Part shown: one piece after another, positions 5,445-32,409 of the stretch
How the letters are laid out: each line of letters begins with the position of its first letter
How positions within the stretch are numbered: the stretch's first letter is position 1
Assembly (NCBI GenBank): GCA_004525465.1
Contig: SPCN01000001.1
Coordinates: 1-35,478, forward strand
Source: Chrysiogenales bacterium
GTDB taxonomy: Bacteria > Acidobacteriota > Aminicenantia > UBA2199
Length of the DNA stretch: 35,478 nt
Direction: 5' to 3'
The notes under the pieces: model-generated
Told to the model about the DNA's origin: nothing
Database searches by the model: none
The model's input: only the letters and a program-made list of their open reading frames with translations
Position numbers and translations under genes: made by a program

Positions 5445-6392
5445 CTAGATCAACGGCCAGGTCTGCGTGGGCAGATAGAAGATCATCTCCACCTGGGTGC
5501 CGACTTTCTTTTCGGAAATGATCACCAGTTTGTCGGCGAAGCGCTTCATGTTGGCGATGCCCATGCCGGCGCCGAAGCCGCGCTCGCGGATGTAATCGGG
5601 GGCGGTCGAGTACCCTTCCTTCATGGCCTTGTCCAGGTCTTCGATACCGATACCATTGTCCACCACACGCACGATGAAGCGGTCTTCATGCTGAAAAAAG
5701 TAGATATCGCCCTGACCGCGGCTATGGATGACCACGTTGGTCTCGGCCTCATAGGTGGCCACGCCGACGCGGCGCACAATGTCGCTGTGAAAACTCTTAC
5801 CGGTCAGGAACTGTTTGAGCATGGCGGCGCCCGTGCCGGCGGCGTCGATGTCGCTGCTGTCGATCTGGTAGTGGAATTCGGCTTCCTCGATCTTCAGCTT
5901 TTCGCCGGTAATGGCCGAGTATTCGGTGTTCAGGGTGCTGGTGCGTTTCTGGTCGTGGATGTAGATGAGGTTGAACTTTTCCAGGATGCCATGCAGGATG
6001 TCTTCCTTGCTGATGATGCCGCAGACGCGTTTATCGTCGTCGACCACCGGGAAGCGGCCGTACTTGTAATTTTCGAACTTGTCCACCACATCGGCCAGCG
6101 AGTCGTCCTTGTGGATGGTGACGACCTGGGTAGACATGATCCGGTGGATGGGGTCGTTGATCTTGTTGAATTCGAAGGCGTGAATGATGTCCTCGATGCT
6201 GATGATGCCGATCAGCTGCTTGTTCTCGTCGACCACCGGCATGCCCGAGATCTTCTTGATCTTCATCAGTTCCTTGGCGTGGGCGATCTTTTTGTCGGCG
6301 GAGATCTCGACCACGTTGGAACTCATGATCTCTCCGGCCTTGATATCCTCAAAAATGGCCGCGTAGCGGGCCAGCTTGTTATTTTCCGACAT
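5445..6392 (-). CDS. CBS-pair domain protein fused to a GHKL (RsbW/SpoIIAB-like, HATPase_c) ATPase/kinase domain
   Basis: I start at the internal Met (MSENNKLARY, ATG at 6392) rather than the track start at 6485, whose Pro/Ala/Cys-rich extension overlaps the DRTGG gene. Two CBS-like repeats are present (IMSSNVV...GMPVVD and IMSTQVV...RFPVVD). The C-terminus carries YEAETNVVIHS (N-box), VDNGIGI (G1) and GFGAGMG (G2). Confidence 0.8.
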   Translation of the reverse strand: MSENNKLARYAAIFEDIKAGEIMSSNVVEISADKKIAHAKELMKIKKISGMPVVDENKQLIGIISIEDIIHAFEFNKINDPIHRIMSTQVVTIHKDDSLADVVDKFENYKYGRFPVVDDDKRVCGIISKEDILHGILEKFNLIYIHDQKRTSTLNTEYSAITGEKLKIEEAEFHYQIDSSDIDAAGTGAAMLKQFLTGKSFHSDIVRRVGVATYEAETNVVIHSRGQGDIYFFQHEDRFIVRVVDNGIGIEDLDKAMKEGYSTAPDYIRERGFGAGMGIANMKRFADKLVIISEKKVGTQVEMIFYLPTQTWPLI

Positions 6393-6735
6393 CGCTGCCC
6401 CGCAATCCGGTGGCGTAGAGCTTGCCGCACGAGGAATAGAGGTAGCTGCGGGTGCGCAGCAGGAGAAAATCGTTCTCGCGGGCATAGGCGATGGTTTCCG
6501 GGGCGATGTTCTTGCCGCGGACCACGATCAGTCCCAGCAGATCGGTGACCAGGGCGGTGCGGATCACCTGCGGATAAGTGTAGCCGGTCAGAACCATCAT
6601 CCCGGGTTGGGTCAGGGCCAGGATGTCGCTGATCATATCGCTGGCTCCAACCGATTTCACCTCTTCATCCAGTTTGCTTTCCCCGGATAGGACTTCGGCC
6701 TCAAGCAGGGCGACGATGTCGCGGACTTTGATCAT
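6379..6735 (-). CDS. DRTGG-domain protein (paralog 1)
   Basis: 118 aa. VRDIVALLEAEVLSG...ASDMISDILA...VLTGYTYPQVIRTA...IVVRGKNI...LLLRT is the standalone DRTGG pattern and aligns clearly with the 7642-7977 product. It overlaps the downstream CBS-ATPase start by 14 nt. Confidence 0.75.
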   Translation of the reverse strand: MIKVRDIVALLEAEVLSGESKLDEEVKSVGASDMISDILALTQPGMMVLTGYTYPQVIRTALVTDLLGLIVVRGKNIAPETIAYARENDFLLLRTRSYLYSSCGKLYATGLRGSDVGK

Positions 6736-6782: not shown

Positions 6783-7337
6783 TCAGTTTTCAGTGTAGAT
6801 TTCCTTTTCGTACCAGGTCTCCAGGCGCAGTTTGTGCTTGGCTTCTTCCTGGGCCAGGGCCAGGAAGGTCTCGCGCATGGGCTCGTCCTCGGCCATAGCC
6901 GCCAGGTCATTGTAGAATTTGAACGAGGCTTTTTCCCGGCGCATGGCCACGATCAGGGCTTCCTGGTAGTCCATGTCCGGTGTGGGTAAGATGTCGACCA
7001 GGTAGTCGACGATTTTAAGGTCGGTCACCTGCTTGGCCGAGGGTTTGAAGGTGCTGCCGCTCTTGACCCGCTGCAGCTTCTCTTTGTGCTGGTTTTCCTC
7101 GCCGGCGAACTGAATGAATTGCTCGCGCAGGGCCTTGTTGTCCAGCTTGTTCGACCAATCCAGGTAGAATTGGCGGGCTTCTTCTTCTTTTTCGATGGCG
7201 AAATCCAGGACTTCCTGAACGGATTTGAATGTGGAAAGAATCATCATGGGTTCGCCGCAACAGACCAGCTGTCCCTTGCCTTCGGCGATCACCTTGACGA
7301 TCTTCCCGCAGATGGAGCATTTGTAAAAATCGGTCAT
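6783..7337 (-). CDS. Desulforedoxin-like domain fused to a ferritin-like/rubrerythrin-family diiron four-helix bundle (no C-terminal rubredoxin)
   Basis: The N-terminus [31 protein letters not shown] matches the desulforedoxin CxxCG...CCG FeS4 motif. The remainder has [26 protein letters not shown] and QEEAKHK, i.e. E / ExxH / E / ExxH diiron ligand spacing. GGGGAGG RBS. Confidence 0.85.
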
Positions 7338-7455: not shown

Positions 7456-7483
7456 GTAGGGGCGCGGCCTGCCGCGCCCCTAC
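7456..7483. repeat. GC-rich REP-like perfect palindrome (R1)
   Basis: GTAGGGGCGCGGC ct GCCGCGCCCCTAC, with 13 complementary positions per arm. Its right half is near-identical to 17732-17744 (GCCGTGCCCCTAC). Confidence 0.7.
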
Positions 7484-7530: not shown

Positions 7531-7559
7531 TTGACTTTTAAGCCGATTTTTTATAACAT
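7531..7559 (+). promoter_or_regulatory. Candidate sigma70-type promoter of the formate dehydrogenase operon
   Basis: TTGACT (7531-7536), then either TATAAC (7552-7557, 15-nt spacer) or TAACAT (7554-7559, 17-nt spacer). An AT palindrome ATAAAA-T-TTTTAT lies just upstream at 7506-7518. The leader to the ATG at 7642 is about 80 nt. Confidence 0.35.
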
Positions 7560-7641: not shown

Positions 7642-7977
7642 ATGTTGGTCAAAGAGGTTGCCGACAAGCTGGACTTGAAAATTCTGGCTGCTGGTGTCGA
7701 TCAGGAAGTGACAAGCGGATACGTGTCCGACCTGCTGTCCGATGTCATTGCCAACGCCGAAGAAGGTTGCCTGTGGATCACCGTGCAAAAGCACCTGAAC
7801 ATCGTGGCCGTGGCCCAGTTGAAAAAACTGGCCGGCATCGTCCTCAGCCGCGGCAGCGAACCCGAAGCCGCCGTTTTGGCCCGGGCCGGGCAGGAAGGCC
7901 TGTTCATTCTTTCCGGAGCCGAGGATTCCTTCACCATTGCCGGCAAATTGTACGCCCTCATTTCCGCATCGAAGTAA
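7642..7977 (+). CDS. DRTGG-domain protein (paralog 2), first gene of the FDH operon
   Basis: 111 aa. VKEVADKLDLKILAAG...VSDLLSDVIA...ITVQKHLNIVAVA...IVLSRGSEP...FILSG aligns with the 6379-6735 product. GAGGAG RBS lies 8 nt upstream. Confidence 0.8.
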   Translation: MLVKEVADKLDLKILAAGVDQEVTSGYVSDLLSDVIANAEEGCLWITVQKHLNIVAVAQLKKLAGIVLSRGSEPEAAVLARAGQEGLFILSGAEDSFTIAGKLYALISASK

Positions 7978-8040
7978 TGCGATCTTGTCCAGGGCAAGGC
8001 AGGGGATATCATGGTCTTTCACTCTCAAAAGGAGGCTTGC

Positions 8041-8571
8041 ATGGAAGCTCAACCGCTCCATATCCCGGATAATGCCCATTACCAGGAACTGAAAAAATTC
8101 ATCGAGGCTAACCGCAATGTTCCCGGCCCCCTGATCCAGGTCCTGCACCGGGCCCAGAAAATTTTCGGTTATCTGCCCTTGGAGGTCCAGCACTTCGTTG
8201 CCCGTGAATTGAATGTGCCCTTGGCTAAAGTTTTCGGCGTGATAACCTTTTACAATTTTTTCCGCCTGGACCCCATCGGCGATCATATCATCAACCTCTG
8301 CTTGGGCACGGCCTGCCATGTCAAGGGGGCATCGGACATCATCAAGGTCATGGAAAAGGAATTGGGCATCAAGGTGGGTGGCACCACGGCCGATCGCTTC
8401 TATACCCTGTCCACGGCCCGTTGTTTCGGAGCTTGCGGACTGGCCCCGGTCATGATGCTCGACGAAGAGGTGCACGGCCGGCTCAATCCCCAGAAGACCA
8501 TCAAGATTTTGCGAGACCTGAAAGCCGAAGCCGCCGGCCCTGGGCAAACCAAAAACAAGGAGAAAAAATGA
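8041..8571 (+). CDS. NuoE/HydC/FdsG-like thioredoxin-fold [2Fe-2S] subunit (copy 1)
   Basis: Start moved to the ATG at 8041 (AAGGAGG 5 nt upstream). Cluster motif is LCLGTACHVKG ... CFGACGLAPV (C-x4-C ... C-x3-C). The stop overlaps the next start (ATGA). Confidence 0.9.
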   Translation: MEAQPLHIPDNAHYQELKKFIEANRNVPGPLIQVLHRAQKIFGYLPLEVQHFVARELNVPLAKVFGVITFYNFFRLDPIGDHIINLCLGTACHVKGASDIIKVMEKELGIKVGGTTADRFYTLSTARCFGACGLAPVMMLDEEVHGRLNPQKTIKILRDLKAEAAGPGQTKNKEKK

Positions 8572-8930
8572 AACTCGAGGATTTAAAGAAGATAAGGGAA
8601 AAAACGGAAAAGGACATGCTGCTGCGAGCCGGAAAAACGCGGCTGCAGGTGGTTGTGGGCATGGGTACCAGCGGCATCGCTGCCGGCGCCCGTGAAACCC
8701 TGAAAGTGTTGCTTGAAGAAGTGGAAAAACGCAACCTGCGCGACGTCATCGTCCGTCAGGCCGGTGAACGCGGTTTGAGCTCGCACGAACCGATCGTCAC
8801 GGTCATGGAGGAAGGCAAGCCATCCGTGGTTTACGGTAATGTCAGCGGCGAAATGGCCCGCAAGATCGTAGCCGAGCACCTGGTAAACGGCAATCCCCTT
8901 TCGGAATCCATCATCGAAGTCAAGGAATAA
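8568..8930 (+). CDS. HndB/HydD-like small thioredoxin-fold subunit, completely Cys-free
   Basis: Start at the ATG at 8568 (AAGGAG upstream); the track ORF 8421 extension is out of character. VVVGMGTSGIAAGA ... AGERGLSSHEPIV is the fold signature of the small 2Fe-2S-ferredoxin-like subunits, but the 120 aa contain no cysteine. Confidence 0.75.
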   Translation: MKLEDLKKIREKTEKDMLLRAGKTRLQVVVGMGTSGIAAGARETLKVLLEEVEKRNLRDVIVRQAGERGLSSHEPIVTVMEEGKPSVVYGNVSGEMARKIVAEHLVNGNPLSESIIEVKE

Positions 8931-8942
8931 AGCGAGGGCGAT

Positions 8943-11900
8943 ATGAACAAACGGCTGGATGTGCTGATCTGCGGAGGAGGTGCCTGTATCTCTTCCCACA
9001 GCCATGAACTCAAGAAGAAACTGCTGGAGGAGATCGAAAAAAACGGGTTGAGTGAAGAAGTTATCGTTGTGGAAACAGGCTGCATGGGCCCCTGCGAACT
9101 GGGGCCGGTCATGGTCGTTTATCCTGAAGGTTCCTTTTACATAAACTTAAAGGAAGAAAACGCCGAGGAGATCGTTCAGGAGCATTTCCTCAAAGGGCGG
9201 CCGGTGCAGAAATTTCTCTGGCAGGTCCCCGAGGCTCGCAGGATCGTCGAGCAGAAGAAGCAGATCCCTTTTTTTGAAAAGCAACTTAAGATCGTTTTAT
9301 CCAACTGCGGCAAGATCGATCCGGAAAACATCGGCGAATACATTGCCCAGCGCGGCTATGAGGCCCTGGGCACGGCCGTGACCCGCATGTCCCCCGAACA
9401 GGTCATCGATACCCTCACCAGGTCGGGGCTGCGCGGCCGCGGCGGTGCCGGCTTTTCCACCGGCCTGAAATGGAAATTCGCTTTTGACAGCAAAAGTGAC
9501 CAGAAATACGTCCTCTGCAACGCCGACGAAGGTGATCCAGGGGCTTTCATGGACCGGGCCGTGCTCGAGGGTGACCCGCACGCCGTGCTGGAAGGCATGG
9601 CCCTGGCCGGCTACGCCATCGGAGCCGACAAGGGCTATATCTACGTCCGAGCCGAATACCCCCTGGCCATAGAACGCCTGAACACGGCCATCGGCCAGGC
9701 CCGCGAAATGGGGCTGCTGGGCAAAAATATTTTCGAGACCTCTTTCCATTTCGACATCGAACTGCGCATGGGCGCCGGCGCTTTTGTCTGCGGGGAGGAG
9801 ACGGCGCTCATGGCCTCTGTCGAAGGCCAGCGCGGCCAGCCCAGGCCCAAACCGCCTTTTCCGGCGGTCAAGGGCTTGTGGGGCAAGCCTTCGGTGATCA
9901 ACAATGTCGAGACCCTGGCAAATGTCCGCCACATTCTGCTCAACGGCTGGGAGTGGTTCAGCGCCATCGGCACCGAAAGGAGCAAAGGCACCAAGGTCTT
10001 CGCCCTGTCGGGCAAGGTGACCAATACCGGCCTGGTGGAAGTGCCCATGGGCATCACCTTGGGCGAACTGGTATTCGATATCGGCGGCGGTATCCCCGGC
10101 GGCAAGGCCTTCAAGGCCGCCCAGACCGGCGGACCCTCGGGAGGCTGCATCCCGGCCAAGTACCTGAATACCTCCCTTGATTACGAGTCGCTGAAAACAT
10201 TAGGCTCGATCATGGGTTCCGGCGGCCTGATCGTCCTGGACGAGGACAGCTGCATGGTCAACATGGCCAAGTATTTCCTGGAGTTTTCTTTGGAGGAATC
10301 CTGCGGCCAGTGTGTTCCCTGCCGGGTAGGCTTGAAGCAGATGTACGACTTGCTGGAAAAAATCACCACCGGCAGCGGCACCATGGCCGACCTTGAAAAA
10401 CTCGAACAACTTGCCTATACGGTACGGGCTACTTCACTCTGCGGCCTTGGTCAGGCGGCACCCAACCCGGTTATTTCGACCATCAAATATTTCAAGCACG
10501 AATATATCGAACATATACAGGAAAAAAAATGTACGGCCGGCGTGTGCGCGGCCTTATTCCCGGCTCCCTGTGTCAACGCCTGCCCGGCCGGGGTTGATGC
10601 CGCCTCCTATGTTTCGCACATGGGCGACGGCCGCCTGCGCGAGGCCTATTTTCAGCACATGCAGAACAACCCGTTTCCCATCGTCTGCGCCCGGGTCTGT
10701 CCGGCTTTCTGCGAAAGCAAGTGTTCGCGCGGCAAGTACGATCAGGCCGTGGCCATACGCGAAGTCAAGCGCCTGTTCGCCGACTGGGCCATCGACCAAG
10801 GACTGGGATTCGCACCGCCGCTGCCGGCGCACAAGGAAAAAGTAGCCGTGGTCGGCGCCGGGCCGGCCGGGCTGGCCTGCGCTTTCTACCTGACCCGTCT
10901 GGGCTACAAGCCGGTGGTTTTCGAAGCCCTGAAAGTGGCCGGCGGCATGATGAAGGTCGGCATCCCCGATTTCCGCCTGCCCAAGGACAAGCTGCAGGCC
11001 GAGATCGCGGTCATCGAAAAGGCCGGGGTGCAGATCAAACTGAATTCTCCGGTGGCCAATATAGACGAATTGACGAATAGTGGCTATGCCGCCGTGTTCA
11101 TCGGCAGCGGCGCTCATCAGGCCCAGAAGCTGAATATCGAAGGCATCGACCTCAAGGGCGTGATGTCAGGCATCGATTTCCTGCGCGAGGTCAACCTGGG
11201 CCGCAAAATAAATATCGGCAATGACATAGTGGTGGTCGGCGGCGGTTCGACCGCCATGGACGCCGCCCGCCTGGCCCGCCGCCTGGGGGCCGGCAACGTG
11301 CGCCTGGTCTACCGGCGCACCCGCAGTGAAATGCCGGCCCTGCTTGAAGAAGTGGTCGGGGCCGAGGCAGAAGGCGTGGAAATGGATTTCCTGGTCAATC
11401 CGCTCAAAATCGTCGGCCGCGCCGGCAAGATCAGCGGCATCCATTGCATCAAGACCGAGCTGGCCGATTTTGACGATTCAGGCCGCCGCCGGCCGGTCCC
11501 GGTCGATGGCAGCGAGTACACTATCCGCGCCAGTTTCATCATCTATTGCCTGGGCCAGAAGCTCAGCCTGGGACTGACCGGGGGCAAGCTGGACCTGGAT
11601 AAGCGCGGCCATATCGCCGTGGATGCGCGCACCATGGTCACCAGCGCCGCGGGAGTATTCGCCGGCGGCGACGCCGTCAATCCCGCGACCGTGATCGAAA
11701 GCGTGGCTCAAGGGCGCCTGGCGGCCGTGAGCATCGACCGTTATTTCGGCCGTGAAGGCCGGCTCTATGACCAGCCGCGCCGGGTGGTCGAGGTCCATTA
11801 TGACGAAGAGGCCTACCTGAAGACCATCGAGCGCAAGGAGCCCCTGCTCGAGGATGCCGAAAAGCGCGTTAGCGAATTGGCCCTGGAGGTCAGCCGCGGA

Positions 11901-12017
11901 TTGACAGCGGATGAGGCCGTGGAAGAGGCGCGGCGCTGTTTGCACTGCGATCGCGACCAGGCACCGGAAAAGGAAGCCAGCACGACCGAATCATTGGCCA
12001 TTGAGGCCATGCTGTGA
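8943..12017 (+). CDS. Fusion protein: Trx-like [2Fe-2S] domain + NuoF/HydB-like FMN/NADH module + GltD/NfnB-like 2x[4Fe-4S]-FAD-NADPH module
   Basis: aa 1-95: ICGGGAC ... TGCMGPCELGP. NuoF core: GLRGRGGAGFSTGLKW, ADEGDPGAFMDR, ESCGQCVPCRVG ... LCGLG. From Cys530 (nt 10530): CTAGVCAALFPAPCVNACPAG ... VCARVCPAFCESKCSRG, then VAVVGAGPAGLA (FAD), VVVGGGSTAMDAA and VRLVYRRTRSEMPA (NADPH-type), and GVFAGGD. Confidence 0.9.
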   Translation: MNKRLDVLICGGGACISSHSHELKKKLLEEIEKNGLSEEVIVVETGCMGPCELGPVMVVYPEGSFYINLKEENAEEIVQEHFLKGRPVQKFLWQVPEARRIVEQKKQIPFFEKQLKIVLSNCGKIDPENIGEYIAQRGYEALGTAVTRMSPEQVIDTLTRSGLRGRGGAGFSTGLKWKFAFDSKSDQKYVLCNADEGDPGAFMDRAVLEGDPHAVLEGMALAGYAIGADKGYIYVRAEYPLAIERLNTAIGQAREMGLLGKNIFETSFHFDIELRMGAGAFVCGEETALMASVEGQRGQPRPKPPFPAVKGLWGKPSVINNVETLANVRHILLNGWEWFSAIGTERSKGTKVFALSGKVTNTGLVEVPMGITLGELVFDIGGGIPGGKAFKAAQTGGPSGGCIPAKYLNTSLDYESLKTLGSIMGSGGLIVLDEDSCMVNMAKYFLEFSLEESCGQCVPCRVGLKQMYDLLEKITTGSGTMADLEKLEQLAYTVRATSLCGLGQAAPNPVISTIKYFKHEYIEHIQEKKCTAGVCAALFPAPCVNACPAGVDAASYVSHMGDGRLREAYFQHMQNNPFPIVCARVCPAFCESKCSRGKYDQAVAIREVKRLFADWAIDQGLGFAPPLPAHKEKVAVVGAGPAGLACAFYLTRLGYKPVVFEALKVAGGMMKVGIPDFRLPKDKLQAEIAVIEKAGVQIKLNSPVANIDELTNSGYAAVFIGSGAHQAQKLNIEGIDLKGVMSGIDFLREVNLGRKINIGNDIVVVGGGSTAMDAARLARRLGAGNVRLVYRRTRSEMPALLEEVVGAEAEGVEMDFLVNPLKIVGRAGKISGIHCIKTELADFDDSGRRRPVPVDGSEYTIRASFIIYCLGQKLSLGLTGGKLDLDKRGHIAVDARTMVTSAAGVFAGGDAVNPATVIESVAQGRLAAVSIDRYFGREGRLYDQPRRVVEVHYDEEAYLKTIERKEPLLEDAEKRVSELALEVSRGLTADEAVEEARRCLHCDRDQAPEKEASTTESLAIEAML

Positions 12018-12024
12018 GGAATGT

Positions 12025-12483
12025 ATGAACCGTGAAAAAATACTGCATAATTACGAGGCTTCGGACGACAACCTGCTGGCCATCCTGCACGATATCCAGG
12101 ATGCCAGTCCCGAGCACTACCTGAGCGAAGCCGACCTGCGAGCCGTCGCCGACTACCTCGGCTTGGCCTACAGTTTCGTGTACGGCGTAGCCACGTTCTA
12201 CACCATGTTCAGCCTGAAACCCCGGGGCAGGCACCTCATCCGCGTCTGCCAGTCTCCTCCCTGCCACCTGCTGGGCTCCACGAATATCGCCAAGGAGTTG
12301 ATCCGGCTGCTGGGAATCGGTTTCGGCGAAACCAGCGCCGACAAGCGCTTTACCTTGGAAATGTCATCCTGCCTGGGCGTGTGCGGAGTGGCTCCGGCCA
12401 TGATGGTCAATAGCCAGGTCTACGGCAACCTGACCCCCGATCTCATCGCGGAAGTCATCGAAGGGTTGCGGAGGGGAAAATGA
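12025..12483 (+). CDS. NuoE/HydC/FdsG-like [2Fe-2S] subunit (copy 2)
   Basis: Start at the ATG at 12025 (MNREKIL) after GAGGAA; the track ORF start at 11911 lies inside the upstream gene. Cluster motif is VCQSPPCHLLG ... SCLGVCGVAPA. The stop overlaps the next start. Confidence 0.9.
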   Translation: MNREKILHNYEASDDNLLAILHDIQDASPEHYLSEADLRAVADYLGLAYSFVYGVATFYTMFSLKPRGRHLIRVCQSPPCHLLGSTNIAKELIRLLGIGFGETSADKRFTLEMSSCLGVCGVAPAMMVNSQVYGNLTPDLIAEVIEGLRRGK

Positions 12484-14078
12484 GCATTTACCGTACGCAC
12501 ATCCTGCTGCCGATCGACGAGGGAACAGTTCTGGCCGGGGTTTTCCAAGTCAAACGCCGGCTGGAAAGAGAGTTGCAATCGAGAAAAATGCAGAATGAAA
12601 TAAAAGTCTTGGAAAGCGGCAGCGTCGGCATTGTCGGAAAAGGCGTCATCCTGACCGTTTTTCCCGACCGCATGTACTATTTTCAGGTCAAGGAAAACGA
12701 CATCGCCCGCATCATCGAGGAGCATTTGCTCAAAGGGCGGATCGTCGCCGACCTGGCCCACGGCCACGTGGCCGACATGACTGCGGACCTGACCGCTGCC
12801 CGCGTCGGACTGACGCGCGAGCAGCGCCGCGTGGTGCTGGACAAAGCCTGGGCCGTGGATCCGCAAAACATCAATGAAGTCCTGGCCGCCGGCGCTTACC
12901 GGGCCCTGGAAAAAATATTCAGCGACAAACTCAGCCCGGAACAGGTGATCGAAGAAGTAAAGCGATCGGGGCTGCGCGGCCGCGGCGGCGCCGGATTTCC
13001 CACCGGCATGAAATGGGAATTCACGCGCCAGGCGGCGGGCGCTGAAAAATACATCATCTGCAACGCCGATGAGGGTGAGCCCGGAACCTTCAAGGACCGG
13101 CTGATCCTCGAGGGTGATCCGCACAAACTTATCGAGGCCATGACCATCGCCGCCTTCGCCATCGGCGCCGGCCGCGGCTATGTCTATATCCGCGGCGAAT
13201 ACGGGCTCTCCATCGAGCGCATGCAAAAGGCCATCGACCAGGCCCGGGAATTCAACCTGTTGGGTAAAAACATCCTGGAGACCGGCTTTGCCTTCGAACT
13301 GGAAATCAAAAAGGGCGCCGGAGCCTATATCTGCGGCGAGGAAACGGCGCTGATCGAATCGCTGGAAGGCAAGCGCGGCAACCCGCGCGTCAAGCCGCCT
13401 TACCCGGTCAGCAAAGGGCTGTGGCAGAAACCCACCGCGGTCAACAATGTTGAAACCCTGGCCAATATTCCGGCCATCATCAGCAACGGCGCCGGCTGGT
13501 TCCGCAAGATCGGCACCGAAAAGTGCCCGGGCACCAAGGTGTTTACCATTCTCGGACACGTCGAGTACCCGGGGCTGATCGAGACCGACATGGGCACGCC
13601 CTTGCGCGAGATCATTTTCTCGTTCGGGGGCGGCATCAAGGGCGGCAAAAAATTCAAAGCTGCTTTACTCGGCGGCGCCGCCGGTGTGTTCCTGTCCGAA
13701 CCCCTGCTGGACGTGAAGATGGATTTCGAGAACCTGAAGGAAAGCAAGGCGGTGCTCGGTTCCGGGGCCGTACTGGTCATGAACGAGGACACTTCGATCG
13801 TGGACATGCTCTTTTCCATCGCCAAGTTTTTCGCCCACGAATCCTGCGGCCAGTGTGCGCCCTGCCGCATCGGCACCAGGCAGATCCTCAATATCGTCTA
13901 CCGCATCCGCCGTGGAGCCGGGAAAAAGGGTGACCCGCAGACCCTGCTGCATCTGGCCGAGACCATGTTCAAATCATCGCTCTGCCCGCTGGGTCAGTCG
14001 CTGGTCATGCCGGTCAAGAGCGCCCTGGAAAATTTTAAAGACGAATTCGCGTTGGCCATCAGCCAATCTGAGAAATAA
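12480..14078 (+). CDS. NuoF/HydB/FdsB-like FMN/NAD(H) [4Fe-4S] subunit (copy 2) with a degenerate, Cys-free N-terminal Trx-like domain
   Basis: GLRGRGGAGFPTGMKW, ADEGEPGTFKDR, ESCGQCAPCRIG ... SLCPLGQS. The N-domain ESGSVGIVGKGVILTVFPDRMYYFQVKENDIARIIEEHLLKGR aligns with ETGCMGPCELGPVMVVYPEGSFYINLKEENAEEIVQEHFLKGR of the fusion protein, but all Cys ligands are replaced. There is no C-terminal ferredoxin domain. Confidence 0.9.
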   Translation: MSIYRTHILLPIDEGTVLAGVFQVKRRLERELQSRKMQNEIKVLESGSVGIVGKGVILTVFPDRMYYFQVKENDIARIIEEHLLKGRIVADLAHGHVADMTADLTAARVGLTREQRRVVLDKAWAVDPQNINEVLAAGAYRALEKIFSDKLSPEQVIEEVKRSGLRGRGGAGFPTGMKWEFTRQAAGAEKYIICNADEGEPGTFKDRLILEGDPHKLIEAMTIAAFAIGAGRGYVYIRGEYGLSIERMQKAIDQAREFNLLGKNILETGFAFELEIKKGAGAYICGEETALIESLEGKRGNPRVKPPYPVSKGLWQKPTAVNNVETLANIPAIISNGAGWFRKIGTEKCPGTKVFTILGHVEYPGLIETDMGTPLREIIFSFGGGIKGGKKFKAALLGGAAGVFLSEPLLDVKMDFENLKESKAVLGSGAVLVMNEDTSIVDMLFSIAKFFAHESCGQCAPCRIGTRQILNIVYRIRRGAGKKGDPQTLLHLAETMFKSSLCPLGQSLVMPVKSALENFKDEFALAISQSEK

Positions 14079-14092
14079 CAAAGGAGGCATGC

Positions 14093-16816
14093 ATGTCGGA
14101 AACGGTAATTATTAATATTGACGGCAAGGAGATCAAGGCGGCCAAGGAAGCCAACCTGCTGCAAGTGGCCCGGGACAACGGCTTTGATATTCCCGGTTTG
14201 TGTTTTTACGAAAAAGTGACCGCCAGCGGCGATTGCCGGTTGTGCGTGGTGAAAATAGAAGGAAGGCCGGGCATGGTCCCCGCCTGCCTGGTCAAGGTCG
14301 AGGCGGGCATGAAAGTCACGGCTTTTGATACGCAGCTGGAAGAAACGCGCAGAATGCTGGCCGACCTGCTGCTCTCCGAACACAATGACGACTGCATCAC
14401 CTGCGAGCGCGACGGCGACTGCGGCATCCAGGACCTGGCCTTCCGCTACGACCTCGACACGCCCAAGCGCACTTTCGCTGCAGTCTGGAAGGAGATTCCC
14501 CAGGCCCCGGATGCTTCGGCGCCGGTGCTGTTCTATGATTCATCCAAGTGCATCAAGTGCGAACGCTGCGTCAAGGCCTGCTTCGAGATCCAGGGTAAAG
14601 GTGTTTTGAGTATGGCCCAGCGCGGTATTCATAGCCATGTCGTGGCCGGAACCGGCCAGTGGTCGGGATCGGAATGCGACGGCTGCGGTGACTGCGTGCA
14701 GGCCTGCCCGGTCGGAGCCCTGATGGAAAAGCCGGTCTACGGCCAGAAACTTAAGAAAAAGGATGTGCAGAATAAAGTGGTTACCACCTGCCCTTATTGC
14801 GGTGTCGGCTGCCAGCTTGAACTCTGGATCAAGGACGAGAAAATCGTCAAGGTCAAGGGGGCGGACTCGGTGCCCAACTACGGCGCCGCCTGCGTCAAGG
14901 GCCGTTTCGGCCTGGATTTCGTCCAGCGCCCCGACCGCTTGACCAAGCCCTTGGTGCGCAAGGAAGGCAAACTTGTCGAATGCTCCTGGGACGAAGCCCT
15001 GGACACGGTGGCCAATAAGCTTGGCGCCATCAAGAAAGAGCACGGGCCTGCCGCCCTGGCCGGCCTCTCTTCGGCCAAGTGCACCAACGAGGAAAATTTT
15101 GTTTTTCAGAAATTCGTGCGCACCGCCTTCGGTTCCAACAATGTCGATCACTGCGCCCGTTTGTGCCACGCCTCGACCGTGGCCGGCCTGGCCCGCACTT
15201 TCGGCTCCGGCGCCATGACCAATTCCATTGAGGAGCTTGAGCGGGCAGAGGTCATCCTGGTTACCGGCTCCAACACCACCGAGACCCACCCGGTCATCGC
15301 CACGCGCATCAAGAAGGCAGTCCTTTTTCACGGCGCCAAGCTGATCGTGATCGATCCGCGTAAAATAGAGCTGGTCAAATACACCGAAAAATACGGCGGC
15401 CTGTGGCTGCGCCAGAAAAACGGCAGCGACGTGGCCTGGGCCAACGGCATGATGCAGGTGATCATCAGTGAAGGGCTGCTCAATGAGGAATTCATAAAAA
15501 CTCGCACCGAGGATTTTGAGGCTCTAAAAAAAATGGTCGAGGGTTTCACTCCGGAAAAAGTGGAAAAAATCAGTGGCATTCCCGCCAAACAACTGCAGGC
15601 GGCGGCTCGTTTGTACGCCAAGGCCAAGAGCGGTTCCATTGTCTATTCCATGGGCATTACTCAGCACACCACCGGCACCGACAATGTCATGTCCATGGCC
15701 AACCTGGCCATGGTCACCGGCAATGTGGGCCGCGAGTCGGTGGGGGTCAACCCCTTGCGCGGCCAGAACAACGTGCAGGGGGCCTGCGACTTGGGTGCTT
15801 TGCCCAATGTCTATCCCGGCTACCAGGCCGTTACCGATGCCGCTATCAGGGAGAAATTTGAAAAAGCCTGGGGAGTCAAGCTCGACGACAAAGTAGGTTT
15901 GACCGTAGTGGAAATCATGCACGCTGCAGCGGAAGGCAAGATTAAGGGCTTGTACATCATGGGCGAGAACCCGATGGTGTCGGATCCCGACCTCAACCAT
16001 GTCAAGCTGGCCCTGGAGAAACTCGATTTCCTGGTGGTCCAGGACATCTTCCTGACCGAGACCGCCCAACTGGCCGATGTGGTGCTGCCGGTGGCATCGT
16101 TTGCCGAAAAGCAGGGCACCTTCACCAATACCGAACGCCGGGTGCTGTGGGTGGAAAAAGCCGTTGCAGCTCCGGGCCAAGCGCGCATCGACTGGGAGGT
16201 CATCCGCGACGTGAGCACGCGCATGGGCTATGCCATGGATTACAAGTGCCTGGAAGACATCGTTAACGAGGTTAACCGCCTGGTGCCGCAATATGCCGGT
16301 ATCACCTATCAGCGCCTGCTCAACGGCGAAAAACTGCAATGGCCCTGTCCCAATCCCGAGCACCCGGGGACGAAATTCCTGCATCGCGACAAATTCAGCC
16401 GCGGCCTGGGCAAGTTCTTCGCCATCGATTACATCCCGCCGGCCGAATGGCCCGACGCCGAATATCCTTTCCTGCTGTCTACCGGGCGCATCCTGTACCA
16501 TTACCATACCGGTTCCATGAGCCGGCGCACCGTGGCCCTGCCGCAGTACGTCGCCGGCCCGTACATGGAAATGCACGCCCAGGACATGAAAAAAATGGCT
16601 ATCGTTGACGGCGAGGAAGTGCGGGTGGCGTCGCGGCGCGGCGAGATCAGGATCCCGGCCCAAGAAAGTCCTCGCGTTGACTTGGGTTCGGTGTTTATCC
16701 CTTTCCATTTCGCCGAGGCAGCGGCCAACGTGCTGACCAACGACGCCTTCGACCCGATCGCCAAGATACCCGAGTTCAAAGTGGCAGCCTGCCAAATAGA
16801 AAAAATTAAATCATAA
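14093..16816 (+). CDS. fdhA: Formate dehydrogenase catalytic subunit, NuoG-like N-terminus + Mo/W-bis-PGD domain (FdsA/FdhA type), Cys at the Sec position
   Basis: [2Fe-2S] CFYEKVTASGDCRLC; His-ligated cluster HNDDCITCERDGDC; 2x[4Fe-4S] CIKCERCVKAC and CDGCGDCVQACP; MopB cluster TTCPYCGVGCQ; active site NVDHCARLCHAST (Cys codon 15164-15166). AAAGGAGG RBS. Confidence 0.9.
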   Translation: MSETVIINIDGKEIKAAKEANLLQVARDNGFDIPGLCFYEKVTASGDCRLCVVKIEGRPGMVPACLVKVEAGMKVTAFDTQLEETRRMLADLLLSEHNDDCITCERDGDCGIQDLAFRYDLDTPKRTFAAVWKEIPQAPDASAPVLFYDSSKCIKCERCVKACFEIQGKGVLSMAQRGIHSHVVAGTGQWSGSECDGCGDCVQACPVGALMEKPVYGQKLKKKDVQNKVVTTCPYCGVGCQLELWIKDEKIVKVKGADSVPNYGAACVKGRFGLDFVQRPDRLTKPLVRKEGKLVECSWDEALDTVANKLGAIKKEHGPAALAGLSSAKCTNEENFVFQKFVRTAFGSNNVDHCARLCHASTVAGLARTFGSGAMTNSIEELERAEVILVTGSNTTETHPVIATRIKKAVLFHGAKLIVIDPRKIELVKYTEKYGGLWLRQKNGSDVAWANGMMQVIISEGLLNEEFIKTRTEDFEALKKMVEGFTPEKVEKISGIPAKQLQAAARLYAKAKSGSIVYSMGITQHTTGTDNVMSMANLAMVTGNVGRESVGVNPLRGQNNVQGACDLGALPNVYPGYQAVTDAAIREKFEKAWGVKLDDKVGLTVVEIMHAAAEGKIKGLYIMGENPMVSDPDLNHVKLALEKLDFLVVQDIFLTETAQLADVVLPVASFAEKQGTFTNTERRVLWVEKAVAAPGQARIDWEVIRDVSTRMGYAMDYKCLEDIVNEVNRLVPQYAGITYQRLLNGEKLQWPCPNPEHPGTKFLHRDKFSRGLGKFFAIDYIPPAEWPDAEYPFLLSTGRILYHYHTGSMSRRTVALPQYVAGPYMEMHAQDMKKMAIVDGEEVRVASRRGEIRIPAQESPRVDLGSVFIPFHFAEAAANVLTNDAFDPIAKIPEFKVAACQIEKIKS

Positions 16817-16831
16817 AAAGGAGAATGTAAA

Positions 16832-17686
16832 ATGGAGTACGACTGCAAATCCCCGGCCATGGTGGCCGCGGACCTGAATGAGAACATTTGCGTCAAGAAA
16901 ACCACGAACAATGCGTTCAAACTGCTGGTGCTGGGCATCCTGGCCGGCGCCTACATTGGTTTCGGCGGCGAACTGTCGAATATGATCGGCCATGACGCGG
17001 CCAAGTTCGTCGGCGCCGGCCTGGCCGCCTTCATCAAAGGCGCGGTGTTTTCCACCGGCCTGATGCTGGTCGTCATTGCCGGGGCGGAGCTGTTCACCGG
17101 CAACACCCTGATCACCATTTCGGTGCTGGACGGTAAATCCAAGTTCAGCGGCCTGCTGTACAACTGGTCGGTCATCTACGTGGCCAACCTGATCGGCTCG
17201 CTGTTGATAGCCTACCTGATGTTCGGCAGCGGCCTTTTGGAAGGCGCCAACGTGGCTGTCGGCGCCGCCGCCTTGAAGACAGCCGCCGGCAAGGTCGGGC
17301 TGGCCTTCTGGCCGGCTTTTTTCCGCGGCATTCTCTGCAACTGGCTGGTCTGCCTGGCGGTGTGGATGGCGCTGGCTTCGCGCAATACCATCGGCAAGGT
17401 CTGGGCCATCTTCTTTCCGATCATGGCCTTCGTGGCCTCAGGCTTCGAGCATAGCGTCGCCAACATGTATTTCATCCCCGTCGGCATGCTGCTCAAAGGG
17501 GTTAACGAAGTGGTGGCGGCCGCGAGCGCTGCCGGCTTGTCTGCCGAATCCCTGGCCAATGTCGGCTGGTACGGCTTCCTGGTCAGGAACCTGGTGCCGG
17601 TCACCCTGGGCAACATCGTCGGCGGCGGCTTCTTTGTGGCCACCCTGTATTGGTTCACCTATATCCGCAAGGGCAAAAAAGCCTAA
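16832..17686 (+). CDS. focA: Formate/nitrite transporter family channel (FocA-like)
   Basis: 284 aa, about 6 TM. Contains ELFTGN, GFEHSVANMYF and ILCNWLVCLAVW, which are characteristic FNT motifs. AAAGGAGA RBS; 15 nt after the fdhA stop. Confidence 0.85.
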   Translation: MEYDCKSPAMVAADLNENICVKKTTNNAFKLLVLGILAGAYIGFGGELSNMIGHDAAKFVGAGLAAFIKGAVFSTGLMLVVIAGAELFTGNTLITISVLDGKSKFSGLLYNWSVIYVANLIGSLLIAYLMFGSGLLEGANVAVGAAALKTAAGKVGLAFWPAFFRGILCNWLVCLAVWMALASRNTIGKVWAIFFPIMAFVASGFEHSVANMYFIPVGMLLKGVNEVVAAASAAGLSAESLANVGWYGFLVRNLVPVTLGNIVGGGFFVATLYWFTYIRKGKKA

Positions 17687-17720: not shown

Positions 17721-17740
17721 GGGCACGGCACGCCGTGCCC
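17721..17740 (+). terminator. REP-like hairpin R2 (possible operon terminator/RNA stabiliser)
   Basis: GGGCACGGC ac GCCGTGCCC followed by CTAC. It lies 35 nt after the focA stop and has no U-tract. Confidence 0.4.
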
Positions 17741-17799
17741 CTACAAAACGGCAAGTTTTCCGATTTGCATGTTGATTGGCGAAAGACATATTCTGGAAT

Positions 17800-17859: not shown

Positions 17860-17887
17860 TTGACAAAATGATAAATTGATTTATAAT
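17860..17887 (+). promoter_or_regulatory. Near-consensus sigma70 promoter with embedded palindrome (possible TetR operator)
   Basis: TTGACA (17860-17865), 16 nt, TATAAT (17882-17887). The palindrome ATAAAT-tg-ATTTAT (17871-17884) overlaps the -10. It lies 33 nt upstream of the TetR gene. Confidence 0.5.
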
Positions 17888-17919
17888 TAATAGTGAGCGT
17901 TAACTAACAATAGGATAAA

Positions 17920-18519
17920 ATGGCGCGATTAAACACCGTAGAAAGACAAAAACATATAGTTGAGCAAGCAATAAAAATTATTAATGCCAACGGCTATTCC
18001 TCGCTCTCGATCAGAGAACTCGCCCATAAAGTGAGAATAAGCGAAGCGGCGATTTACAGGCACTTTCTAAACAAAGAAGATATTATTCTTGGCATCCTGA
18101 CACTTTTTTGCGGTTTTGATAAGCAGTTGAATCAGGAAATCGCGCTTCTTCATAATCCTTTGGAAAAACTGAAACACTTCATGCTGTTTCATTTTACATA
18201 TTTGGAAAAACATGTGGCCATGACCTCGGTCATATTCTCTGAGGATATATTCAACCAAAGCGAGATTCTAAAAAAGAAAATGCAGTCTATCATTAAAAAT
18301 AGAAAGAAGGCTCTATTTGACATTGTCAGCGCCATAAAATCGGAAAATTGCATATCGGAAATGGATGTCGAAGAATTTGTTGTGATAATTTTAGGCTATA
18401 TAAGACTTATAGTATTGGAATGGAGATTAAGTAACTATGCTTTTTCCCTAAAAGCCAGAGGAAATAAGGCCATAAAGTTTGTAAAAACAATTCTGCCGAA
18501 AAAAATTAAAAGTATTTAA
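17920..18519 (+). CDS. TetR/AcrR-family transcriptional regulator
   Basis: N-terminal HTH: IVEQAIKIINANGYSSLSIRELAHKVRISEAAIYRHFLNKEDI. Confidence 0.9.
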   Translation: MARLNTVERQKHIVEQAIKIINANGYSSLSIRELAHKVRISEAAIYRHFLNKEDIILGILTLFCGFDKQLNQEIALLHNPLEKLKHFMLFHFTYLEKHVAMTSVIFSEDIFNQSEILKKKMQSIIKNRKKALFDIVSAIKSENCISEMDVEEFVVIILGYIRLIVLEWRLSNYAFSLKARGNKAIKFVKTILPKKIKSI

Positions 18520-18535
18520 ATGAGAGGTAAATAAA

Positions 18536-19501: not shown

Positions 19502-19517
19502 AAATATAGAGTAAACA

Positions 19518-20453: not shown

Positions 20454-20454
20454 A

Positions 20455-30783: not shown

Positions 30784-30787
30784 CGCC

Positions 30788-31656: not shown

Positions 31657-32409
31657 TCAGAAATTGAGCAGGATCGGCCGCGGCTTGAGCACGTGGCCGA
31701 TCAGGGTCAGGCCGCTGTGGCGCACGATCTCCAGGGCCTTGCCGGTCAGGGTGGTTTGGGAAACCAGGGCCGGCATGCCGGCATGCAGCACCTTCAGGGC
31801 CATTTCCGCCGAAACGCGGCCGGTGATGAAAAGGGCGGTGCGGGCGAAATCAGCGCCGTGGACAAGCCCCCAGCCGATGACCTTGTCCACGCTGTTGCTG
31901 CGGCCGATGTCTTCCCGGCTGACCAGGATGCGCTGCTCCCGCATGTCGACCAGCATGGAGCAGTGGATGCCGCCGTGCTTTTTGAATAGGGGCGTTCGCC
32001 CGGGCAGCTGCTCCATCAGGCGGATCGCCTGCGGCAAGGTGAAATCGTAACACCTGGACACCTTGGGCAGATTGTTGAACAGGTCGGGTTGCACATCGCC
32101 GCCCGAGCAGGCAACCACCTGGACCGGGTGGTAATGCTCCAGGCGCGGCGCGGCCGAGGGCCGCAAACGCACCAGGGCCCGGTCGGCCTGGATGCGCAGA
32201 GCGGCGGCATCGCCCGGGGTCTGCAGCAGGCCCTGGGAGAAAAGCCAGCCCAGGACCAGTTCCTTGCGGTCGACGGGCGAGCAGCTCAGGCGGCTTAAGG
32301 GGCGACCGTCGACCTCGATGGTCAGCAAAACCTCTTCGGGCAGAGGCACCAGCCCCGTTTCCCGGCGCTTTTCAGGAGTCGGATTTTTTTTCGTTCTGCA
32401 GGTAGGCAT
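31657..32409 (-). CDS. fdhD: Formate dehydrogenase accessory sulfurtransferase FdhD
   Basis: REDIGRSNSVDKVIGW (GRHxxxDK-type motif) and FITGRVSAEMALKVLHAGMPALVSQTTLTGKALE ... GLTLIGH. The start at 32409 overlaps mobA by 38 nt and is not certain. Confidence 0.8.
   Translation of the reverse strand: MPTCRTKKNPTPEKRRETGLVPLPEEVLLTIEVDGRPLSRLSCSPVDRKELVLGWLFSQGLLQTPGDAAALRIQADRALVRLRPSAAPRLEHYHPVQVVACSGGDVQPDLFNNLPKVSRCYDFTLPQAIRLMEQLPGRTPLFKKHGGIHCSMLVDMREQRILVSREDIGRSNSVDKVIGWGLVHGADFARTALFITGRVSAEMALKVLHAGMPALVSQTTLTGKALEIVRHSGLTLIGHVLKPRPILLNF

Follow-up and report, generated by a model that had tools for sequence, protein, structure and literature searches.

A formate dehydrogenase operon with two NuoE/NuoF modules, one of them a Bfu-type variant with a GltD-like domain, in a bacterial metagenome-assembled genome

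Enzymes of the Bfu/HydABC type are now defined by an invariant ferredoxin-reducing BfuBC core, the bifurcation mechanism of which is still debated. In the sections of Schut et al. (2022, PMC9304861) that deal with classification, phylogeny and mechanism, bifurcating BfuB/HydB is set apart by five clusters, including an unusual [2Fe-2S] cluster, B2, with the ligands C438, C476 (Thr in two-thirds of the sequences), H525, C531 and C536 in Acetomicrobium mobile HydB; A202 and M204 are given as Bfu-specific and missing from non-bifurcating homologues, and BfuB is picked by its ferredoxin-type domain (IPR017896). Those sections mention no BfuB fused to GltD and no gene cluster with two BC pairs. Zheng & Huang (2024, PMC11406978) described, in silico, a "sub-type I BfuB" in [FeFe]-hydrogenases of Hydrogenedentota, in which the B3/B4 domain is swapped for a DPD_II and FAD/NAD(P) domain; DPD_II is their name for Fer4_20, and the name GltD is not used. 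These authors found homologues in Spirochaetota, Planctomycetota, Verrucomicrobiota and Thermodesulfobacteriota, regarded the sub-type as previously unreported and suggested a second bifurcation centre in it. Here we analyse a stretch of 35,478 nucleotides (contig SPCN01000001.1, positions 1 to 35,478, of assembly GCA_004525465.1, labelled Chrysiogenales bacterium; hereafter the window) that contains an eight-gene formate dehydrogenase (FDH) operon in which a variant of this kind stands beside a second NuoE/NuoF pair.

The operon consists of eight open reading frames (ORFs) on the + strand, at 7642-17686, all of which were recovered at the positions given earlier by an ORF check together with Pfam and NCBIfam. 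These databases also bore out the parts list of the first-pass annotation, namely a DRTGG protein, NuoE-1, an HndB-like protein, NuoF-1::GltD, NuoE-2, NuoF-2, FdhA and a formate/nitrite transporter (FNT) family channel. NuoF-1 is the first part of a fusion protein of 1024 aa (whole ORF 8943-12017) with a thioredoxin-like N-domain, Complex1_51K (159 bits), NADH_4Fe-4S (112 bits), Fer4_20 and Pyr_redox_2. Its residues 4-540 align without a gap to A. mobile HydB (7t2r_B, 791 bits), and the scores against HydB of the Bfu structures are 791 and 769 bits. The ligands of the B1 [4Fe-4S] cluster (C454, C457, C460 and C500) are present along with the FMN/NADH site, as are the five B2 positions (C437, T475, H524, C530 and C535), the Bfu-specific A201 and M203 within PGAFMDR, and the ligands of the N-terminal [2Fe-2S] cluster B5 (C10, C15, C47 and C51). 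The same pattern of ligands is seen in all of the fusions and in canonical HydB proteins of 597 aa. NuoE-1 (PF01257) provides the BfuC-type subunit, and the N-terminus of FdhA, with Fer2_4, NADH-G_4Fe-4S_3 and Fer4_Nqo3, the BfuA-type NuoG-like part. The ferredoxin-type 2x[4Fe-4S] domain of B3/B4 (IPR017896) is absent from both NuoF-1 and NuoF-2. Because NuoF-1 carries the B2 ligands specific for BfuB/HydB, the PGAFMDR motif and the N-terminal [2Fe-2S] cluster, we regard module 1 (NuoE-1, the HndB-like protein and NuoF-1) as a Bfu-type core; the earlier suggestion that it has the repertoire of bifurcating NuoEF-type enzymes holds by these ligands and by the HydB alignment.

Beyond the equivalent of C535, canonical relatives possess a tail of 61 aa with eight Cys, which carries B3/B4 and the ferredoxin path; NuoF-1 has 489 residues in this place. 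They comprise a Fer4_20 domain (C543, C547, C582, C586, C590 and C594), FAD and NADPH Rossmann folds (VYRRTRSEMPA), and a C-terminal EARRCLHC (C999 and C1002), and the key residues of this GltD half are invariant in 14 diverse sequences (alignment A1). By alignment, the GltD domain is a replacement of the ferredoxin-docking B3/B4 domain of a BfuB-type subunit and no add-on, which would place NADP(H) where ferredoxin normally docks. The first-pass annotation was right to call an FAD/NADPH site of the NfnB/GltD kind, and the domain calls hold, but it overlooked that this site stands where the ferredoxin domain with B3/B4 would otherwise be. The best relatives of the GltD half in the PDB are 9bov_A (369 bits), 9n5u_A (NfnA, 366 bits) and 8oh5_C (StnC, 315 bits), followed by NfnB/NfnL (4ylf_B, 305 bits; 5jca_L, 248 bits), and the StnC/NfnA alignments span the YRRTxxEMPA and the C-terminal RCLxC motifs. 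The GltD-type domain of StnC binds FAD and NADPH, and its FAD has been shown to be non-bifurcating (PMC10482914). Since StnC and NfnA are the closest GltD relatives and the StnC domain binds FAD and NADPH, the GltD half of NuoF-1 is probably specific for NADP(H). Eight Cys of this half, six of them in Fer4_20 and the others C999 and C1002, would bind two [4Fe-4S] clusters, leaving C530 and C535 for B2. An assignment of C530 and C535 to the first GltD cluster was considered and is less likely, since unfused canonical HydB proteins share the H-x5-C-x4-C arrangement and since the invariant C-terminal RCLHC can complete the dicluster, as in StnC and NfnA.

NuoF-2 is built differently. It stops right past the NuoF [4Fe-4S] motif, its N-domain is free of Cys, and there is no C-terminal domain. 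The five B2 positions are occupied by S, R, A, K and a gap, the chain ending ahead of the C535 position, and T and K stand at A202 and M204 (A. mobile numbering). The motifs PGTFKDR and AYICGEETALIESLEG are those of complex I, although the scores rank HydB (549 bits) above Nqo1 (415 bits) and FdsB (375 and 316 bits). As the Bfu-specific residues are absent and complex-I-type motifs are present, NuoF-2 is assigned to the non-bifurcating type, and module 2 (NuoE-2 and NuoF-2) is, by its residues, a stripped, non-bifurcating relative of the Bfu-type core. NuoF-2 has the FMN and single [4Fe-4S] cluster of an FdsABG beta subunit and NuoE-2 the single [2Fe-2S] cluster of the gamma subunit. Domain calls therefore uphold the FdsG/FdsB/FdsA-like layout that had been proposed for NuoE-2, NuoF-2 and FdhA, including the cluster-less N-domain of NuoF. 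FdsABG enzymes have one diaphorase module per catalytic subunit; here there are two NuoE/NuoF pairs and one fdhA.

FdhA has a NuoG-like N-terminus with one [2Fe-2S], a His-ligated [4Fe-4S] and two more [4Fe-4S] clusters. Its Sec position is Cys (NNVDHCARLCHAS), the motifs CARLCHAS and RGQNNVQG can be read from the sequence, and its best PDB matches are 7vw6_A/7e5z_A and the FdsA 6tg9_A, at about 740-764 bits. With 741 bits against 6tg9_A over residues 5-902, CARLCHAS and the NuoG-like N-terminus, it is an FdsA-type alpha subunit. Pfam finds no Fe_hyd_lg_C in the operon, whose A-type subunit is FdhA, in agreement with the earlier statement that no hydrogenase-type subunit is present. The HndB-like protein has no Pfam match, and NCBIfam gives just a weak match to a 2Fe-2S ferredoxin (E 2e-7). 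For NuoE-1, Met11 at 8041 is an alternative start, the later start being the one chosen by the gene caller in the closest homologous locus (L001). The channel encoded by the last gene scores 235 bits against the FocA model TIGR04060, under the cut-off of 290. The features are collected in Table 1.

Table 1. Features of the FDH operon and its surroundings (positions in the window)
Feature	Position	Strand	Evidence and remarks
CBS + HATPase_c protein	5445..6485	-	Pfam CBS 113 bits, HATPase_c_2, HATPase_c; divergent from the operon
Second small DRTGG/PucR-like protein	6379..6735	-	Pfam DRTGG 27.7 bits, PucR 30.6 bits; divergent
Rubrerythrin with desulfoferrodoxin-type N-terminal domain	6783..7337	-	Pfam PF06397, PF02915; divergent
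Promoter-like site	7531..7559	+	TTGACT-17-TAACAT, 9/12 matches; AT-rich intergenic region 5' of the operon
DRTGG-domain protein, operon gene 1	7642-7977	+	Pfam PF07085 27.4 bits
NuoE-1, BfuC/HydC-like [2Fe-2S] thioredoxin-like ferredoxin	8011-8571	+	PF01257 160 bits; top NCBIfam HoxE 174 bits
HndB/HydD/BfuD-like protein of 120 aa, cluster Cys lost (GMGTSG..., QAGERGLSSHEP)	8568-8930	+	Weak fdxn_Clost match
NuoF-1, BfuB-type part	8943..10526	+	First part of the 1024-aa fusion
NuoF-1, GltD/NfnB/StnC-like part	10527..12017	+	Pfam Fer4_20 74 bits, Pyr_redox_2 93 bits
NuoE-2, second [2Fe-2S] NuoE-type subunit	12025-12483	+	PF01257 163 bits; NuoE NF005722 139 bits
NuoF-2, stripped type, 532 aa	12480-14078	+	Pfam/NCBIfam; only FMN/NADH and B1 [4Fe-4S] retained
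FdhA, Cys-type Mo/W-bisPGD formate dehydrogenase catalytic subunit	14093-16816	+	TIGR01591 876 bits, cut-off 666
FNT family channel, FocA-like, last operon gene	16832-17686	+	PF01226 268 bits; TIGR00790 246 bits, above cut-off
FdhD/NarQ-family sulfurtransferase, FDH maturation factor	31657..32409	-	PF02634 162 bits; 14 kb downstream

The comparison with other loci (L-numbers) covered 89 fetched loci and the window, mapped by tblastn with reference domains, and L090-L092, taken from Pfam-annotated contexts; relatives of the fusion at 97%, 77% and lower identity were used, and the sample represents the best 80 of at least 600 pattern matches, one of the patterns (GAFVCGEE) being specific to Bfu-type NuoF. 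Full-length relatives of the fusion, with 43-97% identity, are widespread among metagenome-assembled genomes (MAGs) labelled Spirochaetes, Chloroflexota, Desulfobacterota, Verrucomicrobiota, Planctomycetota, Acidobacteriota, Bacillota and Omnitrophota, and occur in a Loki archaeon. Among about 60 fusion-bearing loci, every one with a contig of sufficient length has a NuoG-type partner directly next to the genes for NuoE, (HndB) and NuoF::GltD. The partner is HydA in 22 loci, FdhA in 13 and NiFe in six, the rest being HoxU-like, GltB-like or HdrA-like; the partnerless loci number seven, and all seven are on contigs too short for judging. The majority have a single module, NuoE(-HndB)-NuoF::GltD, as the sole diaphorase module present. 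It is followed by [FeFe] HydA (20 loci), by a NuoG-like protein and the NiFe small and large subunits (four loci) or by FdhA (four loci: L017, L036 with FocA, L038 and L046), and FdhA lies ahead of the fusion in seven. In L092 (5724-13756), EtfB-EtfA lie directly 5' of NuoE-NuoF::GltD, which is followed by a Sec-type FdhA split at a UGA codon, so that two unlike bifurcation-type modules stand beside one FDH. Since single-module NuoE-NuoF::GltD-FdhA(-FocA) operons exist (L017, L036, L046, L092), module 1 would be able to serve FdhA alone. The first-pass annotation had named routine occurrence of the first module without an FDH gene as an argument against its proposal. Taken literally, that is what we find, most loci having no FDH; hydrogenases adjoin instead, however, and the module is not alone. 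Its gene contexts point to a generic diaphorase unit of NuoG-type catalytic subunits, neither FDH-specific nor free-standing.

A small HoxU-like Fe-S protein is the sole adjoining partner in six loci (L024, L044, L047, L049, L051 and L053). These were considered as stand-alone transhydrogenases and rejected as such, since the two that were checked, L049 and L053, carry a gene with a Glu_synthase FMN domain next. In both (L049, 9319-15231, Loki archaeon MAG; L053, 8983-15361, Gemmatimonadaceae MAG) the order is NuoE-NuoF::GltD, a HoxU-like protein of 226-237 aa and the glutamate-synthase FMN-domain protein, and glutamate/leucine dehydrogenase genes surround the cluster, which may encode a Bfu-type enzyme with an amino-acid-linked third substrate. 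The fusion partner in L033 (11248-13074) is a protein of 609 aa in which a NuoG-like N-terminus is fused to what appears, by sequence reading, to be an HdrA-type flavoprotein domain.

The gene order of the window, NuoE-1, HndB, NuoF-1, NuoE-2, NuoF-2 and a catalytic subunit A, recurs with three kinds of A. In this double cassette A is FdhA in the window, L001 and L003, HydA in L007, L090 and L031, HydA plus Sec-FdhA in L091, and a NuoG-like protein with NiFe in L005, while L048 (FdhA and FocA) and L070 (HydA) have a double cassette with a ferredoxin-type NuoF-1. The NuoF-1 of L048 is 73% identical to that of the window over residues 1-530. The same components are found in another gene order in L080 (NiFe), and L078 and L086 (HydA) have two NuoE/NuoF pairs in which the tail of the first NuoF is short and Cys-free and neither copy bears a GltD or ferredoxin-type tail. 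In neighbour-joining trees rooted at the midpoint, all second-copy NuoF proteins form one split (60/60 bootstraps), and an inner clade of the window, L003, L007 and L048 is recovered in 59/60 bootstraps for copy 1 and 57/60 for copy 2. A common deep monophyly of all double cassettes was unsupported (26/60 and 7/60), only the inner clade being robust. Across 11 loci the pairwise identities of copy 1 and copy 2 are correlated (r = 0.90; Mantel 0/5000), and both copies are 50-82% identical across phyla and free of frameshifts. Members of the inner clade differ in the catalytic subunit (FDH or FeFe) and in the NuoF-1 tail (GltD or ferredoxin-type), both of which have been swapped around a two-module core that was preserved.

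HndB lacks Cys in every double-cassette locus but L031, and single-module loci retain three (GMGTCG...TGCxGxC). Judged from these genes and trees, the double cassette is a separate, co-inherited lineage with marks of its own, the Cys-free HndB and the stripped NuoF-2. Among the homologues in L001-L089, loss of the cluster Cys in HndB/BfuD tracks the second NuoE/NuoF pair nearly perfectly, L031 being the exception, which suggests that the Cys-free HndB has an altered, perhaps scaffolding, role. L008, L011 and L023 have GltD-type and TK-type (non-Bfu motif) modules in tandem, each with its own HydA, and the TK-type NuoF of L008 and L023 retains the B2 and B5 cysteines; these loci may be intermediates or the ancestral state of the double cassette. 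L091 (1149-13258) encodes a double cassette, HydA, a protein of 193 aa, a Sec-type FdhA interrupted by UGA and an RnfC-like protein; hydrogenase and formate dehydrogenase may here be combined on a single cassette.

The junctions within the operon are, in order, 33, -4, 12, 7, -4, 14 and 15 nt. The genes had been called translationally coupled; the two ATGA overlaps (8568 and 12480) fit this, while the other five junctions are gapped and are only tightly packed. We consider it somewhat better than an even bet, at roughly 55%, that the operon encodes one cytoplasmic FDH system in which a single FdhA is served by two different co-inherited NuoE/NuoF modules, acting on NAD(H) and NADP(H) and ferredoxin-free. 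FdhA would oxidise formate (or reduce CO2) and pass electrons along its NuoG-like cluster chain. NuoF-2/NuoE-2 would be a plain NAD(H) site as in FdsABG, and NuoF-1/NuoE-1 would form a Bfu-type FMN/B1/B2/C1 centre, the low-potential branch of which ends at FAD/NADP(H) and not at ferredoxin. Formate would cross the membrane via the adjacent FNT channel. HydABC and FdsABG are oligomers of protomers, and one fdhA with two diaphorase sets could therefore yield mixed oligomers or isoforms; both modules would dock on FdhA, as (FdhA.B1C1D)(FdhA.B2C2) or as two isoforms that share it. The single super-complex that was one of the two earlier readings is compatible with a co-inherited double cassette, and isoforms sharing FdhA would fit equally well. 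The module-1 branch would catalyse 2 formate + NAD+ + NADP+ -> 2 CO2 + NADH + NADPH, or the reverse. The in vivo potentials (E') commonly used in the bifurcation literature are about -280 mV for NAD and about -370 mV for NADP. From these and from textbook potentials, formate oxidation would be the most sensible direction energetically, with exergonic NAD+ reduction pulling near-equilibrium NADP+ reduction; the reverse reaction, with formate as electron sink, would be possible.

The tight packing of the operon, its single FdhA gene and the presence of FdhD in the window support this shared-FdhA system. Several points weigh against it. Co-divergence of the two copies is equally expected of any two enzymes kept in one operon, and it indicates co-inheritance but is no proof of physical contact. 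The binding of both modules to FdhA is deduced from sequence and not from physical evidence, and the NADP(H) specificity, as well as the assignment of C530 and C535 to B2 rather than to the GltD dicluster, comes from alignment alone. The locus frequencies are rough because the sample is the best 80 of at least 600 matches and is biased to Bfu-type NuoF. In L008, L011 and L023 each module has its own HydA, which suggests descent from two separate enzymes. Finally, a freely reversible, non-bifurcating NADH site on a shared Fe-S wire would short-circuit bifurcation, which speaks against a single tightly coupled super-complex and argues for isoforms or some gating. Only tentatively would we go as far as a stricter form, in which all six redox proteins make up one hetero-oligomeric FDH with a Bfu-type FMN/Fe-S bifurcation core that takes NADP+, via the fused FAD/GltD domain, as its second acceptor, where formate drives an obligatorily coupled, ferredoxin-free reduction of NAD+ and NADP+ and the NuoE-2/NuoF-2 arm and the cluster-less HndB serve as a controlled bypass or scaffold. 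If true, this would be a new class of bifurcation between two pyridine-nucleotide pools, with H2 as the driver in the sister cassettes.

In NfnB/NfnL, homologues of the GltD domain (4ylf_B and 5jca_L, scores as above), the FAD is bifurcating and ferredoxin receives its electrons from the two [4Fe-4S] clusters; NuoF-1 also retains, as R678, the conserved Arg of GIPxYRLPK. A complex with two bifurcation centres, as proposed by Zheng & Huang for sub-type I BfuB (PMC11406978), would couple formate, NAD(H), NADP(H) and ferredoxin. We think this unlikely here: StnC and NfnA are closer to the GltD half (369 and 366 bits, as against 305 for NfnB), and the FAD of StnC is the non-bifurcating one (PMC10482914). 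Moreover, the operon encodes no high-potential partner of the NfnA/NfnS type, and the covalent position of the dicluster beside B2 suggests an internal wire and not an exposed ferredoxin site. The other earlier reading takes NuoE-2/NuoF-2/FdhA for an ordinary FdsGBA-type FDH and NuoE-1/HndB/NuoF-1::GltD for a separate NADH:NADP+ transhydrogenase without an A subunit, which might be linked to ferredoxin and would merely be co-transcribed; in our judgement this is improbable. Module 1 does hold every cofactor for electron transfer between NAD(H) and NADP(H), Schut et al. (PMC9304861) include "Type 4" Bfu enzymes without BfuA, Stn-like genes stand, unexplained, beside an FDH gene in Dehalobacteriia, and the tandem loci L008, L011 and L023 show the module types in separate enzymes. 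In those tandems, however, each module has its own HydA and hence is not A-less. A stand-alone transhydrogenase is disfavoured because a NuoG-type partner is always adjacent where the flank suffices, module 1 being mostly the sole diaphorase module there; the apparently HoxU-only loci have a GltB-like catalytic gene next (L049, L053), and the order C1-D-B1-C2-B2-A is maintained while A is swapped.

Signs of degeneration in the cassette, namely the Cys-free HndB and a NuoF-2 that is minus three clusters, together with the regulatory-type genes (DRTGG, HATPase, PHP and CBS) that accompany these loci, would fit a cassette in which one module alone is catalytically relevant and the other survives as a relic, degenerate or regulatory, for instance in redox sensing with the DRTGG, CBS and HATPase genes. 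This appears very improbable, as both NuoF copies have intact FMN, NADH and [4Fe-4S] motifs, both NuoE proteins have four Cys, and NuoF-2 has the canonical active-site motifs of complex I. Both copies are conserved across phyla at the identities given above and without frameshifts, and the GltD residues are invariant in the 14 aligned sequences.

The DRTGG gene is kept at the head of the operon in L001, L004, L007 and L090, and in L003 an MFS transporter takes the place of the FNT channel. The CBS and HATPase_c gene type, which adjoins the cassette also in L001, L003, L005 and L008, is an accessory or regulatory type that recurs near HydABC-type loci; the rubrerythrin gene is found in the same place in L001 and L003/L004. 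The promoter-like site upstream of the operon is weak, being a consensus match alone of a kind no commoner than in shuffled sequence. GC-rich hairpins at 7456-7483 and 17722-17744 bracket the operon, each ending in G[CT]GCCCCTAC, a motif that occurs three times where 0.09 would be expected; REP-like elements and structures at transcript ends are possible explanations.

Downstream, the region 17860-24965 is a low-GC island (GC 0.36-0.41, as against 0.51-0.63 in the rest of the window) that opens with a perfect sigma-70 consensus (TTGACA-16-TATAAT, 17860-17887) and encodes a TetR regulator, an HlyD-type membrane-fusion protein and an ABC ATPase. In L001, a locus 97% identical to the window, the island genes come after FocA too, and the matching positions also hold genes for an outer-membrane factor and for another ABC ATPase. 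The island looks like a horizontally acquired efflux operon unrelated to the FDH operon. An ORF with a GIY-YIG nuclease domain (30629-31081) lies between a pirin gene and the FdhD gene, and could be the sign of a mobile element or of a homing-type nuclease. The fusion protein of the window is 100% identical to TFG81093.1, named "hydrogenase" in the database and derived from a MAG labelled Chrysiogenales; members with at least 90% identity are labelled Aminicenantes and relatives with 77% identity Spirochaetes. The taxonomic label is unreliable because near-identical copies carry conflicting MAG labels (Chrysiogenales and Aminicenantes). Database names for the fusion family are inconsistent as well, and include "hydrogenase", "NADH-quinone oxidoreductase subunit F" and "FAD-dependent oxidoreductase".

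The fusion constitutes a widespread natural variant of the Bfu core in which the ferredoxin domain is traded for an NADPH/FAD domain, and close relatives swap the two versions in an otherwise identical cassette (L048 and the window). In effect, this contrast is a domain swap made by nature in the low-potential branch, a contested part of Bfu enzymes. If formate or H2 is indeed coupled to NADH plus NADPH, anaerobes would have a ferredoxin-independent route to NADPH, and redox balances would have to be redrawn in the metabolic reconstructions of many uncultured phyla, where "hydrogenase", "NuoF" and "FAD-dependent oxidoreductase" are the present names of these genes. The double cassette also poses the question of how bifurcating and non-bifurcating NADH sites share one catalytic subunit with no short-circuit, and offers a defined target for cryo-EM (cryogenic electron microscopy).

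Among described systems, sub-type I BfuABC(D) shows the same C-terminal domain replacement as NuoF-1 and likewise has BfuC and an optional BfuD (HndB). Its partner is an H-cluster HydA, in a group A3 [FeFe]-hydrogenase cluster, whereas that in the window is FdhA, and PMC11406978 mentions neither an FDH nor a BfuD without its cluster, nor a further NuoE/NuoF pair in the same gene cluster. With the wider Bfu family (NiFe-HydABCSL of Acetomicrobium mobile, 7t2r; [FeFe] HydABC, 7q4v and 7p5h) NuoF-1 shares all B1, B2 and B5 ligands, NuoE-1 resembles HydC, and the FdhA N-terminus resembles the A1-A4 part of HydA; the window differs in lacking B3/B4, with NADP(H)/FAD instead, and in its extra non-bifurcating NuoEF pair. 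StnABC/NfnABC (8oh5, 9n5u and 9bov) have the same cofactor repertoire of NuoE, NuoF and a GltD-type FAD/NADPH domain. Their GltD domain, however, is inserted in the NuoG-like A subunit (StnC/NfnA), which bears no further catalytic site, and lies on the mid-potential path, and their BfuB retains B3/B4 for ferredoxin. In the window, by contrast, GltD forms part of the BfuB chain, where the ferredoxin domain would stand, and a catalytic FDH serves as the A subunit. No gene of the NfnA/NfnS type (FNR-like, with [2Fe-2S] and FAD) was found by a Pfam scan in the operon or in the 20 flanking ORFs of the window. A study of Dehalobacteriia describes Stn-like genes that adjoin an FDH gene as "of unclear significance".

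FdhA is related over its full length to that of FdsABG(D) (Rhodobacter capsulatus, 6tg9; Cupriavidus necator, 6vw7) and of Methylorubrum FoDH1 (7e5z/7vw6), at 741-764 bits and with the same Cys-type active site, and NuoE-2/NuoF-2 share the cofactor set of FdsG/FdsB. NuoF-2 is nonetheless nearer to HydB than to FdsB, no FdsD was seen, and a Bfu-type module is added in the window operon. HylABC-FdhF2 of Gottschalkia acidurici and FdhA-HytA-E of Clostridium autoethanogenum likewise combine an FDH with a Bfu-type NuoEF core. They differ in reaching ferredoxin via B3/B4, in that BfuA (HylA/HytD) is a subunit of its own beside a Sec/W FdhF-type one, and in possessing one BC pair and no GltD domain; the FdhA of the window has its own NuoG-like N-terminus, and Cys. 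HydABC of Syntrophomonas wolfei and "sub-type II" BfuB, which are considered non-bifurcating, lack B3/B4 and B5 as NuoF-2 does, but NuoF-2 is also without the B2 ligands and lies downstream of a Bfu-type pair, before one shared catalytic gene. In the HdrA of ANME-1 archaea (PMC9012536), an NfnB-like insertion in the ferredoxin domain has led to the suggestion of NADPH in place of ferredoxin, which is an analogy only, since the host protein is unrelated and there is no homology of host subunits. In the open-access literature we found no biochemical characterisation of any NuoF::GltD protein, and no description of an FDH-linked fusion or of a cassette with two NuoEF pairs. While the fusion itself was known in silico, what is new in this locus is the attachment of a sub-type I-like Bfu-type variant to an FDH, inside a previously undescribed two-module cassette.

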